From the NCBI GenBank assembly GCA_902492995.1, contig CABUNR010000004.1:1-61261 (forward strand): 61,261 nucleotides of DNA, written 5' to 3'. The DNA is from an uncultured Bacillota bacterium. Its GTDB lineage: Bacteria; Bacillota_I; Bacilli_A; RF39; UBA660. The notes under the pieces were generated by a model, which was not told the origin of the DNA, did no database searches, and saw nothing but the letters and a program-made list of their open reading frames with translations. Shown piece by piece: positions 3,982 through 40,634 of the stretch. How positions within the stretch are numbered: position 1 is the stretch's first letter; each line of letters begins with the position of its first letter. Position numbers and translations under genes: made by a program.

Positions 3982-4497
3982 ATGATTAATAAAAAAAATT
4001 TATGGTTTTTAACATTATTTAGTTTAATATTAGTATTAAGTGTTTATTACATAACAATGCCAAATGAACTTTTACTAACCAATAGTTCAAACTATTTAAA
4101 AAATGATTTAAAGAAAAATAAAACAGAAAAAACATCAGTAGAAGTAGAAGAAAGCGAAGTTTTAACTGCTCTTCGTGTAACTGCTGATGAAAATTTAGAA
4201 AAAGAAATTAGTTCGTTAAAAGAAATTTTGAATAATAAAGATACAACAACAGAAGAAAAAAATAAAGCATTTGAAAAAATAAAAACATTAAATGAAAGTA
4301 AAATACTAGAACGTGAAATTGAAACAAAAATTGAAAAGGTGCATAAATTAAAATCATTTGTAAAAATAGAAAATCAAAGTGTTAAAGTAACAATAGATAG
4401 TGATAAACATACAAAAGAACTTGCTAATAAAATAATGAGAACAGTACAAGAAAATTTTTCTTCTAAAGTAAATGTGACAATAGAATTTAAAAAATAA
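3982..4497 (+). CDS. spoIIIAH: SpoIIIAH-like stage III sporulation protein
   Basis: The N-terminal anchor KKNLWFLTLFSLILVLSVYYI and the C-terminal KVTIDSDKHTKELANKIM...VNVTIEFKK closely parallel B. subtilis SpoIIIAH as I recall it (MLKKQTVWLLTMLSL..VLSVYYI ... KINITVKSDKHSKSKA). This was matched from memory, not by a search. Confidence 0.7.
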   Translation: MINKKNLWFLTLFSLILVLSVYYITMPNELLLTNSSNYLKNDLKKNKTEKTSVEVEESEVLTALRVTADENLEKEISSLKEILNNKDTTTEEKNKAFEKIKTLNESKILEREIETKIEKVHKLKSFVKIENQSVKVTIDSDKHTKELANKIMRTVQENFSSKVNVTIEFKK

Positions 4498-4520: not shown

Positions 4521-4602
4521 TTTTGTTCATCACTAAATTAATATTTTTACATAAAATAATATGAGTAAATATAAACCACCCAGCTTAGAAAGTGAGGGAA
4601 AG

Positions 4603-4806
4603 ATGAAAAGTATTTTAACAAAAAGAGAAAAAGAAGTTTTTGAATTACTTATTCAAAATAAAACAACTATTGAAATAGCAAAAATATTAAAAATAAGTGA
4701 AAAAACTGTTAGGAATCATATATCAAATACTATGCAAAAATTAGGTGTAAAAGGAAGGGCAAGTGCAGTTGTAGAACTTTTAAAATTGGGAGAAATTTCA
4801 TTATAA
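4603..4806 (+). CDS. LuxR/GerE-family HTH transcriptional regulator (stand-alone, about 68 aa)
   Basis: LTKREKEVFELL..TTIEIAKILKISEKTVRNHISNTMQKLGV is a classic GerE/LuxR C-terminal HTH. The ORF opens at 4561, but the ATG at 4603 has the SD GAGGGAAAG. Confidence 0.8.
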   Translation: MKSILTKREKEVFELLIQNKTTIEIAKILKISEKTVRNHISNTMQKLGVKGRASAVVELLKLGEISL

Positions 4807-5843: not shown

Positions 5844-5920
<77 letters not shown>

Positions 5921-6955: not shown

Positions 6956-7029
6956 TGGTGCCGAGTGTAGGAATCGAACCTACGTCTAATCATTACGAGG
7001 GATTTGTTTTACCATTAAACTAAATCGGC
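6956..7029 (-). tRNA. tRNA-Thr (anticodon CGT)
   Basis: Sense strand GCCGATT TA GTTT AATGGTA AAAC A AATCC CTCGTAA TGATT AGAC GTAGG TTCGATT CCTAC ACTCGGC ACCA. There is one acceptor mismatch (6:67) and a 31:39 mismatch. Confidence 0.8.
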
Positions 7030-7032
7030 CCA

Positions 7033-7106
7033 TGGCTGTCCCAGTTAGATTCGAACTAACGATAATAGAGTCAGAGTCTATTGCCTTACCACTTGGCCAT
7101 GGGACA
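7033..7106 (-). tRNA. tRNA-Gln (anticodon CTG)
   Basis: Sense strand TGTCCCA TG GCCAAGTGGTAAGGC A ATAGA CTCTGAC TCTAT TATC GTTAG TTCGAAT CTAAC TGGGACA GCCA. The U1-A72 pair is typical of bacterial tRNA-Gln. Confidence 0.85.
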
Positions 7107-7146
7107 ATAAAATAAAAACTCGGCAACCGAGCTTAAATTTTTTTAA

Positions 7147-7231
7147 TGGTGCAGGTGAAGGGACTTGAACCCCCATGTCGTAAGACACTAGATCCTAAGT
7201 CTAGCGCGTCTGCCAATTTCGCCACACCTGC
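7147..7231 (-). tRNA. tRNA-Leu (anticodon TAG), long variable arm
   Basis: Sense strand GCAGGTGTGGCGAAATTGGCAGACGCG CTAGA CTTAGGA TCTAG TGTCTTACGACAT GGGGGTTCAAGTCCC TTCACCTGCACCA. It is 85 nt, class II. Confidence 0.9.
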
Positions 7232-7242
7232 AATTAAAAAAA

Positions 7243-7319
7243 TGGTGGACCTTGTAGGACTCGAACCTACGACCGTTCGGTTATGAGCCGAATGCTCTGA
7301 CCAACTGAGCTAAAGGTCC
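7243..7319 (-). tRNA. tRNA with CAT anticodon, most likely tRNA-Ile2 (lysidine) rather than Met
   Basis: Sense strand GGACCTTTAGCTCAGTTGGTCAGAGC A TTCGG CTCATAA CCGAA CGGTC GTAGG TTCGAGT CCTAC AAGGTCC ACCA. The GGACC.../...GGTCC acceptor matches my recollection of Bacillus tRNA-Ile(CAU). Confidence 0.75.
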
Positions 7320-23804: not shown

Positions 23805-24224
23805 ATGAAAAAAAATGGTTTTACACTAATAGAGCTTTTAGCAGTTTTAACAGTACTTGGATTAATTTCATTAGTAACAGTATCTACAATAACTGGAACA
23901 TTAAAATCATATAAAAATACATTATATGAAAATCAAATTAATAATATAGAAGCTGCAGCAAGATTATGGGCATCTGATAATATGTTAAAATTACCAAATG
24001 ATGATTCATCAACTGAAGTTTGTGAATACGTAAATTATAATAATTGCTCAGATAATTATTATAAGCTAGTTATTACTCTTTCTGAACTTCAAAAAGGTGG
24101 ATATCTTGATACAGATTTAAAAAATGCTAAAACAAAAAAAACATTTGAAAATATAAATATAAATATTATAAAAAAAGGTAAAAAAATTATCTATGAAGTA
24201 AATGATACAGAAAATGAAAGTTAA
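23805..24224 (+). CDS. Type IV pilin / ComGC-like pseudopilin (prepilin N-terminal cleavage/methylation domain)
   Basis: MKKNG|FTLIELLAVLTVLGLISLV: a canonical class III signal with Gly-1, Phe+1 and Glu+5. 139 aa, with its own promoter-like TTGCTA-17-TATTAT upstream. Confidence 0.85.
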   Translation: MKKNGFTLIELLAVLTVLGLISLVTVSTITGTLKSYKNTLYENQINNIEAAARLWASDNMLKLPNDDSSTEVCEYVNYNNCSDNYYKLVITLSELQKGGYLDTDLKNAKTKKTFENININIIKKGKKIIYEVNDTENES

Positions 24225-28077: not shown

Positions 28078-28190
28078 GTTCACATGAAAATTGAATATTT
28101 GTACCGTAGACAGTAGGGGAGAAATCTTAATTATCCTACCGAGGAACTTTTATAGATTCTTGGCCTTACTCTACGTAAGGCTTTTATATG
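28078..28190 (+). promoter_or_regulatory. Ribosomal protein L10 (rplJ) leader with attenuator hairpin
   Basis: ...GTACCGTAGACAGTAGGGG...CCTACCGAGG... pairs (GTAGG/CCTAC), followed by the terminator-like GCCTTAC/GTAAGGC stem (28163-28180) plus TTTTAT. Position and shape fit the Firmicute L10 leader. The family call is from memory. Confidence 0.55.
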
Positions 28191-28217
28191 GTACTTTATA
28201 TGAATGGAGGTGCAGAT

Positions 28218-36400: not shown

Positions 36401-37066
36401 TCAAATGGAAAATTCATTATTTCAGTTAAAAATGATGTTGAAGTAAGAGAACATACTTCAAATTATGGTGCTAAACTTGCTGTTTCTAAGGGTGAAGAAG
36501 TAAAAGCAGGACAACGTTTAACTCATGGTGCAATAAGTCCAAAAGAGTTATTAGTTGTAACTGATCCTATTACTGTTCAACAATATATCGTAAAAGAAAT
36601 TCAAAAAGTTTACCGTTCTCAAGGTGTTGATATTTCAGATAAACATATTGAAGTAATGGCAAAACGTATGATTTCAAAAATTAAAATTGTTAGTTCAGGA
36701 GATTCTTATTTCTTACCTGGAACAATGGTTAATATTAATGAATTTACAAATAAAAATACAGAGTTAATTCTTGAAGGAAAAACTCCATCAACTGGTAGAC
36801 CAGTACTTCTTGGAATTACTAAGGCTTCACTTGAAACTGATTCATTCTTATCTGCTGCATCATTCCAAGAAACAACAAGAATTCTTACAGATGCTGCTAT
36901 CCATGGAAAAGTAGATCATTTAAATGGATTAAAAGAAAATGTTATAATTGGTAAATTAATTCCTGCAGGAACAGGAGCTAAAAGATATCAACAAACTGAT
37001 TATAAGTTAGAAAATGAGCAAGATGAAGAACCTTTAGATGTATTAGAAAGTGAATTAATGGATTAA
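33437..37066 (+). CDS. rpoC: DNA-directed RNA polymerase subunit beta'
   Basis: Zn-finger CACGKY..C..CGVEV and catalytic [12 protein letters not shown]. 1,209 aa. The start overlaps the rpoB stop by 1 nt. Confidence 0.98.
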
Positions 37067-37088
37067 GGACTAAAATTAGTCCTTTTTT
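37066..37088 (+). terminator. Rho-independent terminator after rpoC
   Basis: AGGACTA (37066-37072) / TAGTCCT (37077-37083), AAAT loop, T6. Confidence 0.8.
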
Positions 37089-37099
37089 CATATATTAAA

Positions 37100-37128
37100 T
37101 TGAAAAGAAAAAGACAATTTGATATAAT
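37100..37128 (+). promoter_or_regulatory. Near-consensus sigma-A promoter (TTGAAA-17-TGaTATAAT) driving the large ncRNA
   Basis: -35 at 37100-37105, exact 17-nt spacer, extended -10 TGATATAAT at 37120-37128. The predicted TSS is near G37135. Confidence 0.75.
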
Positions 37129-37134
37129 ATCTTT

Positions 37135-37717
37135 GATGGCACATTATTCTAGTCATTAAATTTACTATGAAGGTGGGGCTAAAAATCCACTAAAGGGCAC
37201 ATCTGTGAAACTTCTTGTGCTTGCTTCTTACGCCCAGTTCGGGGTGAGTGCTGGGAGGTTAGGATATTGGGCAACCGTAATGGCATACGTTATTGACCCA
37301 ATATCTGTGGAGACCTAAACTTGTTATAAGCCTATACACAACAGTTGACGGACTTATGACGATTTAGGATTAAACCTACTATGTGGGGAAACTTACGAGT
37401 AGCGTAGCTTGTCTTGAGTGAATATAGGGAATTATTGATCAGATTCTTATCTTTGGCCAAAGGTATGGATTATTGCATTATGAAACTATATTTGCAAAAG
37501 AGAATTAATAGTAAATAGATGGTGGGGAAATCTTCTAGAATGTATTTTAATATGGGATTGCGGTGCGTACTAAGTGGCAATCAAGTCATATATTTGGTGA
37601 CGATATATTTGTATTTTTAAAGGGGAACCGCAAGTTTGGTAACGAACTGTAAATACAAGAGAAATTCAACTTGACCTAAGACGCAAAGTTTACTATTTTA
37701 AATGCCATCTTTTTTTT
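37135..37717 (+). ncRNA. Large (~583 nt) structured non-coding RNA candidate. OLE-like genomic layout; family unverified
   Basis: No ORF of 60 aa or more on either strand. About 37 % G+C by hand count over 37141-37680, versus very AT-rich intergenic DNA elsewhere. The 5' GAUGGCA (37135-41) pairs with UGCCAUC (37703-09), which is followed by U8. Many local helices are visible, for example 37263-71/37297-305 (9 bp), 37314-19/37363-68, 37326-32/37350-57, 37376-80/37398-402, 37556-61/37577-82 and 37608-16/37651-59. Confidence 0.7.
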
Positions 37718-37723
37718 ATTTAG

Positions 37724-38320
37724 GTGATTAAATTGAGAAAGAGTAAGTTAGAATTAATTAATTTAAAAGTACAAACAAGAAGAAAAGAATTAAAACATAA
37801 AGAAAAAGTAGATAAGGTATGGGTTATTAAAATTATATTAATTTCATTTGTAGTAGCATTAGTATTTGCTTTTGTATCAGAAACTATTATTCCTAATGTA
37901 AATTTAATATTTGGAATTGTTCTTCTTATTTTGGTAATAACTTTAGGGGTAATATTTGATATGATAGGAGTTGCTGTTACTGCAGCAGATATAGTTCCTT
38001 TTAATTCGATGGCATCAAGAAAAGTTAAAGGAGCTAAAATTGCTATTAAATTAAAACAAAATGCTGATAAAGTTTCTTCCTTTTGTAATGATGTTTTTGG
38101 TGATATATGTGGTGTAATTTCAGGATCAATTGGTGTAATTATATCTAGTTCTTTATCAAAAGTTATAAATATTAATAGTTTATATATATCACTATTAGTT
38201 ACGGCAGTAATTGCATCTATAACAATAGGAGCTAAAGCACTTTGTAAAAGTTTTGCTATTAATAAATCAAATATAATACTATATAAATCTTCAAAATTTA
38301 TTAATATATTTTATAAATAA
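37724..38320 (+). CDS. Small 4-TM membrane protein with a highly basic N-terminus (possible OapA-like partner of the upstream RNA)
   Basis: N-terminus IKLRKSKLELINLKVQTRRKELKHKEK, then four hydrophobic segments with intramembrane acidic motifs IFDMIGVA and NDVFGDICGV. The SD TAGGTGA lies 5 nt after the RNA U-tract. The start is GTG 37724 or, better spaced, TTG 37733. Confidence 0.6.
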   Translation: MIKLRKSKLELINLKVQTRRKELKHKEKVDKVWVIKIILISFVVALVFAFVSETIIPNVNLIFGIVLLILVITLGVIFDMIGVAVTAADIVPFNSMASRKVKGAKIAIKLKQNADKVSSFCNDVFGDICGVISGSIGVIISSSLSKVININSLYISLLVTAVIASITIGAKALCKSFAINKSNIILYKSSKFINIFYK

Positions 38321-38333
38321 AATGGTAATATTA

Positions 38334-38362
38334 TTGACTAGAAAAATATATAATGATATAGT
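38334..38362 (+). promoter_or_regulatory. Sigma-A-type promoter (TTGACT-17-TATAGT)
   Basis: -35 at 38334-38339 and -10 at 38357-38362, upstream of the GTG start at 38381 (SD AGGAGTGA). Confidence 0.6.
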
Positions 38363-38380
38363 TAGTGTAGGAGTGATATA

Positions 38381-40039
38381 GTGAAAGATAATAATATAAA
38401 TAGTGAAGATTTAGAAGAAAAAAAAGATAATGAAGTTGTAACTGATCAAGAAGATAATAGCTCTACAGAAGAATTAGACAACATAAAAATAGAAGAGTTG
38501 GCAGATGATAATGTAGATGATGACATTTCAAAAGAGAAAAAAGAAACTACAGAAAAGGATATTTCAAAAGAAGAAAAAGAAATTACAGAAAATGATATTT
38601 CTAATGAAGAAGAAAATAATCAAGTTATAAATGATGACATTTCAAAAGACTTTTCTATTAAGAAAAAAAATAAATCAGTAATTATTATAGCAATTATCGC
38701 TATTTTGGTACTTGCTTTATGCTTATTATATAAGTTTATATATAATCCTAAAAAATTATTTATTAAATCAATTAATAAACAATATACAGAAGTTGAAAAT
38801 TATTTATATGATTTAATTAAAGAAACATCAAATAAAAAAGCTATGACTATTTCAAATAATTTAGAATTTAATGTAAAAGTTGATAAAAGTATATCAAATA
38901 ATAGTACTAATTCATTAATTGATGAAATAAATAAATTAAAATTAAATTCTGAAGTTGGATATGATAAGAAAAACAAACAAATGCTAATAAATGTAAATGC
39001 GTTATATGAAAAAGATTCTATAATAAATTTAATAACATATGTAAAAGATAAAAATCTATATTTAGAACTTAAAGATTTATTTGATAAATATATAATTGTT
39101 CCTGTGGATGATTATAACTCATATTTTAAAAATACAATATCAGAAAGTGATATAAAATATATTTTAAAGAAAACAAAAGATGTTTATATAAATAATTTAG
39201 ATGAAAAGAATTTTAAAAAGAGTAATGGAACAATAAAAATTGATGGAAAAGATACAAAAGTTAGTAAAATAAGTTATGAAATATCACAAAAAGAAGCTTA
39301 TATTTTAGGAGAAAATATTTTAAAAGAATTAAAAAATGATTCAAAATATATTGAGGCATTAGCAACTATTTCTAATGAGGATAAAGAAACAATAAAAAAA
39401 TCAATGAAAAAAGGAATAGAATCATTACAAAAAGATATTTCTTCAAAAGAGTTTGATAGCAAAAATAGAATATCATTTGTTACTTATGTAAAAGGAATTA
39501 CAAATAAATCAGTTGGATATGAAGTATTAGTAAATGGTAGTGATAATGTTAAAATTTCTTATACAAAAGGTGATAATAACACTATAAAGGTAGTAATGAA
39601 TAATGAAGAAATTTTAAATGCACAAATTTATAATGATAAAATTAAAATGTCTATAAATGTAGAAGATAAAAAAATTACTTTTGACATATCAAAGAAAGTT
39701 AATGGTAAAAAAACAACTTATGATTATGATTTAAATATATCTGGAATGAGTGTTACTGGAAATATAATAATAGATATGAAAAAGGAAAATAAAGATGGAT
39801 CATATGAGGCAGAAGTTGATGTAAATGCTAATGTTATGGGATTAGTTAAATTAAATGTTAAAAATACATCAAAAGCTGTAATAACTGATGAATTGAAGCT
39901 TCCAGATTTATCAAATAGTATTAATTATGAAAAATTGACTGATGATGATATTAATAATATTAAATCAAAATTGTATGAAAATAAAGCAATTAAAACATTA
40001 ATTGAAAAATTTAGTAAAAGTGAAGTAGGTTTATATTAA
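38381..40039 (+). CDS. Hypothetical single-pass membrane protein with an acidic repeat-containing N-terminal tail
   Basis: N-terminal 100 aa are rich in D/E/K with reiterated DISKE-type units, followed by one TM (VIIIAIIAILVLALCLL) and a ~430-aa extracytoplasmic part. No family was recognised. Confidence 0.55.
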   Translation: MKDNNINSEDLEEKKDNEVVTDQEDNSSTEELDNIKIEELADDNVDDDISKEKKETTEKDISKEEKEITENDISNEEENNQVINDDISKDFSIKKKNKSVIIIAIIAILVLALCLLYKFIYNPKKLFIKSINKQYTEVENYLYDLIKETSNKKAMTISNNLEFNVKVDKSISNNSTNSLIDEINKLKLNSEVGYDKKNKQMLINVNALYEKDSIINLITYVKDKNLYLELKDLFDKYIIVPVDDYNSYFKNTISESDIKYILKKTKDVYINNLDEKNFKKSNGTIKIDGKDTKVSKISYEISQKEAYILGENILKELKNDSKYIEALATISNEDKETIKKSMKKGIESLQKDISSKEFDSKNRISFVTYVKGITNKSVGYEVLVNGSDNVKISYTKGDNNTIKVVMNNEEILNAQIYNDKIKMSINVEDKKITFDISKKVNGKKTTYDYDLNISGMSVTGNIIIDMKKENKDGSYEAEVDVNANVMGLVKLNVKNTSKAVITDELKLPDLSNSINYEKLTDDDINNIKSKLYENKAIKTLIEKFSKSEVGLY

Positions 40040-40053
40040 ATCCTACTTTTTTT
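40023..40053 (+). terminator. Rho-independent terminator
   Basis: AAGTAGG / CCTACTT stem overlapping the stop codon, followed by T7. Confidence 0.6.
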
Positions 40054-40096
40054 ATGTATTTAAAGCATAAAATTAGTGTAATATGAATAAAATTTA

Positions 40097-40125
40097 TTGA
40101 CATTAACATAATAAAATGATATATT
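40097..40125 (+). promoter_or_regulatory. Sigma-A promoter of the str operon (TTGACA-17-TGaTATATT)
   Basis: -35 at 40097-40102, 17-nt spacer, -10 at 40120-40125 with an upstream TG. A ~90-nt leader contains the hairpin AGATTTAC/GTAAATCT. Confidence 0.7.
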
Positions 40126-40217
40126 ATTTTTGCATAGATTATTAGATTTACTTTGGTAAATCTTTAATTAAGGCATAAAAAGAAACACCTGGAAGTGTGG
40201 AATGAAAGGAGGACATT

Positions 40218-40634
40218 ATGACAACTATTAATCAATTAGTTAGAAAACGTAGAACTGATAAAGTTAGAAAGAGTAAAGCTCCAGTCTTAGGAATTGGATA
40301 TAACAGTAGAAAGAAAAAAACAACTAATCAAAATTCACCACAAAAACGTGGAGTATGTACTCGTGTTGGTACTATGACACCAAAAAAACCAAACTCAGCA
40401 TTAAGAAAATATGCTCGTGTTCGTTTAAGTAATGGAATGGAAGTTACTGCATATATTGGTGGAGAAGGACATAACTTACAAGAACATAGCGTTGTATTAA
40501 TACGTGGTGGTCGTGTTAAAGACTTAATCGGTGTTCGTTATCATATCGTTCGTGGAACACTTGATACAGCAGGAATTGACAAAAGACGTCAAGGACGTAG
40601 TAAATACGGAACTAAAAAACCAAAAAATAAATAA
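40218..40634 (+). CDS. rpsL: 30S ribosomal protein S12
   Basis: [10 protein letters not shown]...[27 protein letters not shown]. Confidence 0.97.

Follow-up and report, generated by a model that had tools for sequence, protein, structure and literature searches.

The ornate, large, extremophilic (OLE) RNA, which is said to go back to Puerta-Fernandez et al. in 2006, is the closest described counterpart of an element that we analysed in a 61,261-nt stretch of DNA (hereafter the window; contig CABUNR010000004.1) from an uncultured Bacillota bacterium. This large, membrane-associated bacterial non-coding RNA of about 600 nt is abundant and stable, and its deletion gives stress phenotypes. The species in which it has been investigated are Halalkalibacterium halodurans, Clostridium acetobutylicum and C. 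botulinum; OLE RNA has been in Rfam since 2006-2009, and a GTDB-wide survey counted 2,822 OLE genes in the Bacillota, including uncultured gut lineages. Reduced OLE RNAs from the gut have been described as 'variant 1' (TANB77) and 'variant 2' (RF39) (Fernando & Breaker 2024; PMC11332333). The hallmarks of the associated protein OapA are four transmembrane helices, a DxxxD motif, a cytoplasmic basic cluster and a distant similarity to CNNM proteins (PMC12265935); OapB is a KOW-like protein and OapC belongs to the YbxF/L7Ae family. Set beside these systems, the window element is already known, a standard member of a curated and intensively studied family: the region is almost certainly the gene of a canonical full-length OLE RNA, in an AT-rich gut bacterium of the class Bacilli, with oapA directly 3' of it. 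The features of the locus are the following.

37065-37090, plus strand: intrinsic terminator of rpoC, stem 37065-37084 (AAGGACTA/TAGTCCTT) followed by a T-run (terminator scan)
37100-37128, plus strand: predicted sigma-70-type ole promoter, -35 TTGAAA at 37100-05, 17-nt spacer, extended -10 TGaTATAAT at 37120-28
37135-37709, plus strand: OLE RNA, 575 nt with the two strands of helix P1 as its ends (the Rfam match is wider, 37120-37724)
37710-37717, plus strand: U8 tract directly 3' of P1, a possible partial terminator or 3'-end signal
37733-38320, plus strand: oapA, 195 aa from TTG 37733, with the Shine-Dalgarno (SD) sequence AGGTGA at 37721-26, seven bases upstream
38381-40039, plus strand: orf552, 552 aa, an uncharacterised predicted single-pass membrane protein gene after oapA

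A cmscan run of the whole window against Rfam 15 matched RF01071 (OLE) to 37120-37724 on the plus strand over the entire model (1-616 of 616), with a score of 409.6 bits (gathering score 50), E 7e-117 and posterior probabilities near 1 along the entire match. An initial annotation, made from the letters alone, had proposed either an OLE-family RNA or a new large non-coding RNA, and this match bears out the former. The same annotation had described the region as helix-dense, about 37 % G+C and free of open reading frames (ORFs) of 60 aa or more on either strand, all of which agrees with our figures. The longest ORF in the ORF listing that touches 37135-37717 on either strand has 42 aa. The G+C content of the OLE stretch is 37.4 %, versus 25.9 % in the whole window, 23.3 % in oapA and 20.1 % in orf552. 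Finally, the 583-nt RNA has a minimum free energy (MFE) of -157.9 kcal/mol (z = -3.83 versus dinucleotide shuffles), and its MFE fold contains the end-to-end helix.

Further support comes from relatives of the locus. The oapA ORF (198 aa) has 5,602 homologues at E <= 0.001, and a profile (A1) built from 16 oapA homologues was used to recover 80 loci from GTDB species genomes, almost all of them gut or rumen metagenome-assembled genomes labelled Bacilli, Tenericutes or Mycoplasmatota bacterium. An Rfam scan found a full-length OLE RNA upstream of oapA in 10 of the first 12 loci, and nhmmer with the window RNA as query found one in 69 of the 80 (67 full-length and two cut at a contig end). The distance between OLE and oapA is at most 150 nt in 57 of these 69 loci. 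In seven loci (L005, L006, L023, L035, L040, L068 and L073), OLE was undetected in at least 3 kb examined upstream of the oapA homologue; two of them, L006 and L040, carry this homologue 1-2 kb upstream of rpsL, with neither rpoC nor OLE before it. Elsewhere (L019, L028, L051, L058 and L070), OLE and oapA are separated by 1.4-5.8 kb.

For pair counting, we transferred the RF01071 consensus structure onto the window and aligned 68 sequences of a single clade with MAFFT (alignment A2); covariation was judged by counts and shuffles. In the window, 139 of the 150 consensus pairs that have bases on both sides are canonical. Over the 68 sequences, 92.6 % of the cells of this structure are paired, compared with 39-46 % after a shift of the registers by 1-3 columns. 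Both-sided changes were seen at 103 of 139 pairs, and none of 500 shuffles attained any of five covariation measures. The 67 close homologues provide dense covariation, including at P1-P3 and in the palindromic P9 loop. Some OLE RNAs of the same clade lack J6/7-P8 or most of P7 (L077, L046, L053, L056, L033 and L069 in the alignment); that of L077 (L077:4053-4569, 517 nt) is without the entire J6/7-P8 region. These reduced RNAs resemble the published reduced variants, and the window RNA stays full-length.

Given that Rfam leaves the helices joining the 5' and 3' parts unannotated, we sought the long-range helices from the published domain description, in which P1-P3 make this connection and P3/P3.1 spans about 12 bp (PMC12265935). 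The helix names below are our own mapping from text descriptions (PMC12265935), not from a figure.

37135-41 (GAUGGCA) with 37703-09 (UGCCAUC), plus strand: P1, 7 bp, from the sequence and the MFE fold
37147-52 with 37535-40, plus strand: P2, 6 bp, 99.5 % paired and almost invariant
37153-56 with 37519-22, plus strand: P3, present; P3 and P3.1 together make 13 bp
37160-68 with 37508-16, plus strand: P3.1, both-sided changes at 9 of 9 pairs
37172-37191, plus strand: P4 hairpin, 6 of 6 pairs, A-rich loop CUAAAAAUC
37204-11, plus strand: J4a/5, predicted kink-turn (k-turn) segment UGUGAAAC
37211-57, plus strand: P5/P5.1, loop CGCCCAG
37262-306, plus strand: P6/P6.1, loop AAUGGCAU
37307-15, plus strand: J6/7, predicted k-turn segment GUGGAGACC
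37314-68, plus strand: P7, loop 11 nt above model length
37376-402, plus strand: P8, consensus helix
37411-37504, plus strand: P9 long arm, palindromic loop GGCC at 37455-58
37524-34, plus strand: P10, 3' domain
37545-55 with 37693-703, plus strand: P12, 3' domain
37564-68 with 37681-85, plus strand: P12.1, 3' domain
37581-86 with 37669-74, plus strand: P12.2, consensus helix of the 3' domain
37588-608, plus strand: P13, GUGA loop and one bulged U at the model's bulge position, the predicted OapB site
37609-16 with 37651-58, plus strand: P14, consensus helix
37630-50, plus strand: P14.1, GUAA loop
37659-67, plus strand: P15, 3' domain

P1 is the helix that the initial annotation had recognised from the exact complementarity of GATGGCA (37135-41) and TGCCATC (37703-09), the latter followed by T8 at 37710-17, and these letters are as it described. 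It is paired in 80.5 % of homologue cells, of which 15 are changed on both sides (for example GUGGA/UCCAC and AUGGU/ACCAU), so that its covariation appears modest. Several of the other stems drawn by hand in that annotation coincide with the family consensus: 37263-71/37297-305 corresponds to 37262-71/37297-306, the inner stem 37273-79/37286-91 to 37276-79/37286-89, 37314-19/37363-68 enclosing 37326-32/37350-57 to 37314-31/37352-68, 37376-80/37398-402 to 37376-89/37390-402, and 37608-16/37651-59 to 37609-16/37651-58. The helix drawn at 37556-61/37577-82 (GAUUGC/GCAAUC) stands only in part: it is a perfect 6-bp complement and yet lies outside the family consensus model. Its pairing is possible in 98 % of homologue cells, but the sequence is nearly invariant, with a single position showing G-C, G-U and A-U, and two of its nucleotides are shared with P12.2 (37581-86/37669-74). 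We did not adopt it on account of this invariance and overlap; it may be a tertiary pairing, or one that forms as an alternative, within a 3' domain that is poorly resolved.

The loops and junctions with assigned functions are likewise in place. The A-rich P4 loop is a reported dimer contact (PMC12265935) and reads CTAAAAATC in 43 of 68 sequences. Further dimer contacts reported for OLE are a pair of complementary loops on P5.1 and P6.1 and the palindrome in the loop of P9 (PMC12265935; Kretsch et al.). Of the 68 sequences, 65 have an identical P5.1 loop and 63 an identical P6.1 loop, and the GCC and GGC of the two loops are complementary, matching the requirement of the reported kissing contact. 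At P9, for which Kretsch et al. describe a symmetric kissing loop with palindrome covariation, the tetranucleotide is GGCC in 46 sequences, AGCU in 13, GUAC in seven and non-palindromic in two. The latter are the AGGC loops of L063 and L074, and GUAC is absent among the palindromes given in the relevant passage of Kretsch et al. (GGCC, GAUC and AGCU). Judged by sequence, the dimerisation loops are all present in the window RNA, their role in dimers being taken from the literature. The k-turn bound by OapC is formed by J4a/5 with J6/7 or J5/6 (Kretsch et al.), and the core bases of UGUGAAAC and GUGGAGACC are at least 90 % conserved at the level of sequence, geometry aside. The OapB site has been described as P13, a hairpin marked by a GNRA loop and one bulged nucleotide (PMC7936274), and 65 of the 68 sequences have a GNRA loop there.

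The gene downstream has the features of a typical oapA, as predicted from its sequence. The longest ORF in this frame begins at GTG 37724, and TTG 37733 is the likely start because the homologues begin at MRKSK. Four hydrophobic segments (residues 31-49, 56-74, 121-139 and 145-167) follow a Lys/Arg-rich N-terminus (MRKSKLELINLKVQTRRKELKHKEK). The D-x-x-x-D motif, which is specific to OapA, is invariant in profile A1, with CNDVFGDICG in the window and CNDVxGDICG in homologues. Pfam CNNM (PF01595) scores E 1.9e-4 and 21.6 bits, below its cut-off of 28.4, and the OapA profile matched no chain among the PDB sequences. The expectation that a four-transmembrane oapA would follow OLE directly was thus correct, the gene starting 24 nt after P1.

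We found no evidence that contradicts the OLE assignment. Nonetheless, a few reservations apply. The genes oapB and oapC, essential in H. halodurans, were not found within the 61-kb window, in which the only free-standing ORF of 60-130 aa encodes a GerE-type regulator. Among smaller deviations of the RNA itself, the model's 4-bp hairpin at positions 424-435 is deleted, for which the relatives in the alignment likewise have no space, and the loop of P7 (helix 37314-68) exceeds the model by 11 nt. Additionally, the U8 tract could stop more transcription than we assume.

Upstream, rpoC ends at 37066 and its terminator hairpin is preserved with compensatory changes in five related species (alignment A4). 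The promoter that follows has 11 of the 12 consensus positions plus TG and is the best site in the 3.6 kb scanned (36800-40400). In the same five species the -10 element TGATATAAT is invariant, the -35 TTG is conserved, and the spacing of promoter and terminator from the 5' end of OLE is constant. Given this conservation across related species, the prediction that ole has a promoter of its own is well supported; transcription would start near G37135. Both elements had been named in the initial annotation, which gave a clean rpoC terminator and a near-consensus TTGAAA-17-TGaTATAAT at 37100-37128; our scans call the terminator stem at 37065-37084 plus T-run and the promoter at the same positions.

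Food for thought is where this transcript ends. The initial annotation regarded the region as a self-contained unit whose closing helix doubles as the terminator, so that P1 and U8 would release a discrete 583-nt primary transcript and oapA would be transcribed separately. U8 does follow immediately after P1, P1 is in the MFE fold, and the Rfam consensus also terminates in a U-run behind an ACCAC strand. Additionally, a weak promoter-like site (TTGACC-17-TATTTT, 37671-37699) falls within the 3' end of OLE, some 35 nt before oapA; the site combines the invariant OLE sequence CUUGACC (the 3' strand of P12.2) with TATTTT, and may be either an internal promoter of oapA or a coincidence. Against an efficient terminator, the strands of P1 are about 560 nt apart, unlike those of a local intrinsic-terminator hairpin. 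No hairpin abuts U8: the local fold of 37660-37740 reaches only -5.6 kcal/mol (z = +1.37 versus shuffles), the terminator pattern scan gave no call at P1/U8, and with the long-range P1 as the sole adjoining stem the arrangement falls outside the definition of a Rho-independent terminator. Only 16 of the 68 sequences have a T-run of at least six behind P1, and the closest species (L001 and L002) lack it. The internal promoter-like site matches at just 9 of 12 positions, in sequence that is invariant in OLE, and the ole cluster of H. halodurans is reported to be polycistronic. We therefore regard a self-contained unit as rather unlikely. By analogy, ole and oapA are probably in large part co-transcribed, with U8 at most attenuating, because a local terminator hairpin is missing, the U-run is poorly conserved, the gap between P1 and the oapA start is only 24 nt, and the promoter scan found no strong promoter belonging to oapA itself.

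If ole and oapA share a transcript, the OLE stretch might instead be a cis-acting leader (5' untranslated region) that regulates oapA rather than an independent RNA. Its position directly upstream of oapA, probably on one transcript, fits this idea, and U8 and the start region of oapA can form a hairpin that takes in the SD sequence. This hairpin, however, is no better than shuffles (z = -1.05), some relatives keep an intact OLE although 1.4-5.8 kb, or another gene, lies between it and oapA, and OLE RNA has been published as an abundant, stable component of a ribonucleoprotein. A leader function in place of an independent RNA is therefore very improbable.

A new family of large structured RNAs, resembling OLE in size and context only, could have been argued beforehand from size, helix density and absence of ORFs; nothing favours it after testing, since RF01071 matches over its full length at 409.6 bits, which refutes the second option of the initial annotation, and a permissive Rfam scan of 36900-38000 gave no other family at E <= 1 on the plus strand, leaving next to no probability for it. 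In that interval ROOL, GOLLD, HEARO and raiA had no match at E <= 1, and none reached the gathering score in the whole window; a U2 match (E 0.49) to the minus strand, where the rpoC terminator lies, was rejected as chance. Equally negligible is the reading that the region codes for small proteins, be it one or several: it is overlapped by nine ORFs of 26-42 aa, but none reaches 60 aa, and the 68 homologues show compensatory changes in paired columns and loop indels of arbitrary length.

For the OLE RNA that we favour, the following course of events can be envisaged. Transcription would start about 7 nt after the conserved TGnTATAAT promoter behind the rpoC terminator and most likely continue, at least partly, past U8 into oapA, so that one transcript would carry both genes, as in H. 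halodurans; the most that P1 and U8 might do is to dampen read-through or to mark where the mature RNA ends. Helices P1-P3 join the two ends of the molecule and close an RNA of about 575 nt. By analogy with H. halodurans and Clostridium, the RNA may dimerise via the P4, P5.1/P6.1 and P9 loops, and dimers of OapA, a membrane protein with four helices, may bind it and so keep it at the cytoplasmic membrane or, in the most recent model, through it. In this position it could scaffold a stress-response ribonucleoprotein that acts under alcohol, cold, excess Mg2+ and poor carbon sources.

The genomic setting deserves attention of its own. The gene order in the window is methyltransferase-rpoB-rpoC-ole-oapA-orf552-rpsL-rpsG-fusA-tuf, and it is repeated in L001 and L002, in four human-gut contigs bearing a 98 %-identical oapA allele, and in species with OapA proteins 85 % and 71 % identical. 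In the reconstructed ancestral cluster of the Bacilli, rpl7ae stands between the rpoBC and str operons (PMC8046335); its product is of the YbxF family, as is OapC. In the window, the gap from the rpoC stop to the rpsL start (37066-40218) holds ole-oapA-orf552, and an L7Ae-like ORF is absent from its ORF listing. The OLE literature that we searched for an rpoC/rpsL context of ole mentions neither gene. We consider the own conserved ole promoter, the placement between rpoC and rpsL and the recurrent 552-aa neighbour to be mildly new.

This neighbour, ORF552, combines an acidic, disordered N-terminal region (95 residues) with a single predicted membrane helix and a domain rich in beta structure. 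Its AlphaFold2 model has a predicted local distance difference test score of about 90 for residues 120-545. There was no Pfam or NCBIfam match, and a fold assignment was abandoned, as Foldseek against the PDB gave only generic beta-sheet matches (TM-score <= 0.2). Within the acidic region lies a 36-nt (12-aa) tandem repeat of 2.6 copies (38520-38611), and strains of the same species carry versions of 540, 552 and 564 aa, which fits the gain or loss of repeat copies. A word-indexed search yielded 25 homologues; ORF552 or homologues occur at the window, L001, L002, L007, L009, L010, L016, L017, L021, L027, L037, L085-L087 and L090. Those with at least 30 % identity adjoin ole-oapA in three settings beyond the rpoC-rpsL slot: between an RnfD-like gene and cotE, in the locus order ole-oapA-orf-CYTH-cotE, and, at L037, between ole and oapA. 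The gene after oapA is heterogeneous over the 80 loci, with the ORF552 family beside oapA in 10. A strict linkage of ORF552 to OLE was rejected on the basis of two distant homologues (P0142 and P0143) that have neither OLE nor oapA within 5 kb. Distant homologues without OLE occur at L088 and L089.

One could picture ole, oapA and orf552 as a three-part cassette that moved into the rpoC-rpsL gap, with ORF552 as a new lineage-specific OLE-associated protein, though we hold this to be improbable. In such a cassette, confined to this gut Bacilli sub-clade, the acidic tail of ORF552 would be cytoplasmic and its large beta-rich domain, of no known fold, would lie outside; ORF552 could contact the part of OLE that the transmembrane model places outside the membrane, or could replace OapB/OapC. 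If ORF552 were indeed a partner, a membrane or extracytoplasmic component would be added to the OLE particle. An association of ORF552 with OLE is possible but unproven, a lead rather than a finding.

The remainder of the window offers some insight into the host.

3982-4497: SpoIIIAH-like gene
4561-4806: GerE/LuxR-type regulator gene
23805-24224: pilin-like gene, product with N-terminal methylation motif
28086-28197, plus strand: ribosomal protein L10 leader upstream of rplJ
5844-5917, plus strand, and 6959-7319, minus strand: five tRNA genes

The last two lines are the other Rfam matches. The host is probably a walled spore-former rather than a mollicute, given that the window also encodes the SpoIIIAH-like, GerE/LuxR-type and pilin-like proteins and that relatives have cotE near ole. 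A spore-forming host fits the reported correlation of OLE with sporulation genes.

The identification itself matters little, considering that a standard cmscan recovers this copy at 410 bits. What remains of interest is where ole sits in the genome, that it has a promoter of its own and that an uncharacterised gene recurs beside it. The locus is a clean example for OLE biology, in which the biochemical function of the RNA is still unsolved: it is a full-length OLE in a small AT-rich gut genome, where conserved OLE positions stand out because the background is only 26 % G+C, and its strong conserved promoter adjoins the most highly expressed core operons (rpoBC and str).

Compared with the OLE RNA of Rfam (RF01071), the window RNA shares all major helices (P1-P10 and P12-P15), the dimerisation loops, the OapB site and, at the level of sequence, the k-turn segments; oapA is immediately downstream and the host is likewise an anaerobic member of the Bacillota. 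It differs in the missing hairpin 424-435, the extended P7 loop and the very AT-rich variable stems. Moreover, ole lies within a long polycistronic cluster in H. halodurans, whereas in the window it has its own promoter after the rpoC terminator and sits between the rpoBC and str operons. The hosts of the reduced variants 1 and 2 are likewise uncultured gut bacteria known solely from metagenome assemblies, but the window RNA retains P7, P8, the long P9, and the GNRA loop plus bulge of P13. From these motifs it is classed as of the 'full-length' type and not as a reduced variant, because P7, P8, the long P9 and the OapB site are kept (definitions in PMC11332333). With the CNNM-domain Mg2+ transporters (MpfA and CorB), the window OapA shares four hydrophobic segments and a sub-threshold PF01595 match, but it is without CBS or CorC domains. 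Finally, ROOL, GOLLD, HEARO and the raiA motif are of the same size class and similarly ornate in structure, whereas their reported contexts are phage, insertion sequence-linked or related to ribosome hibernation.

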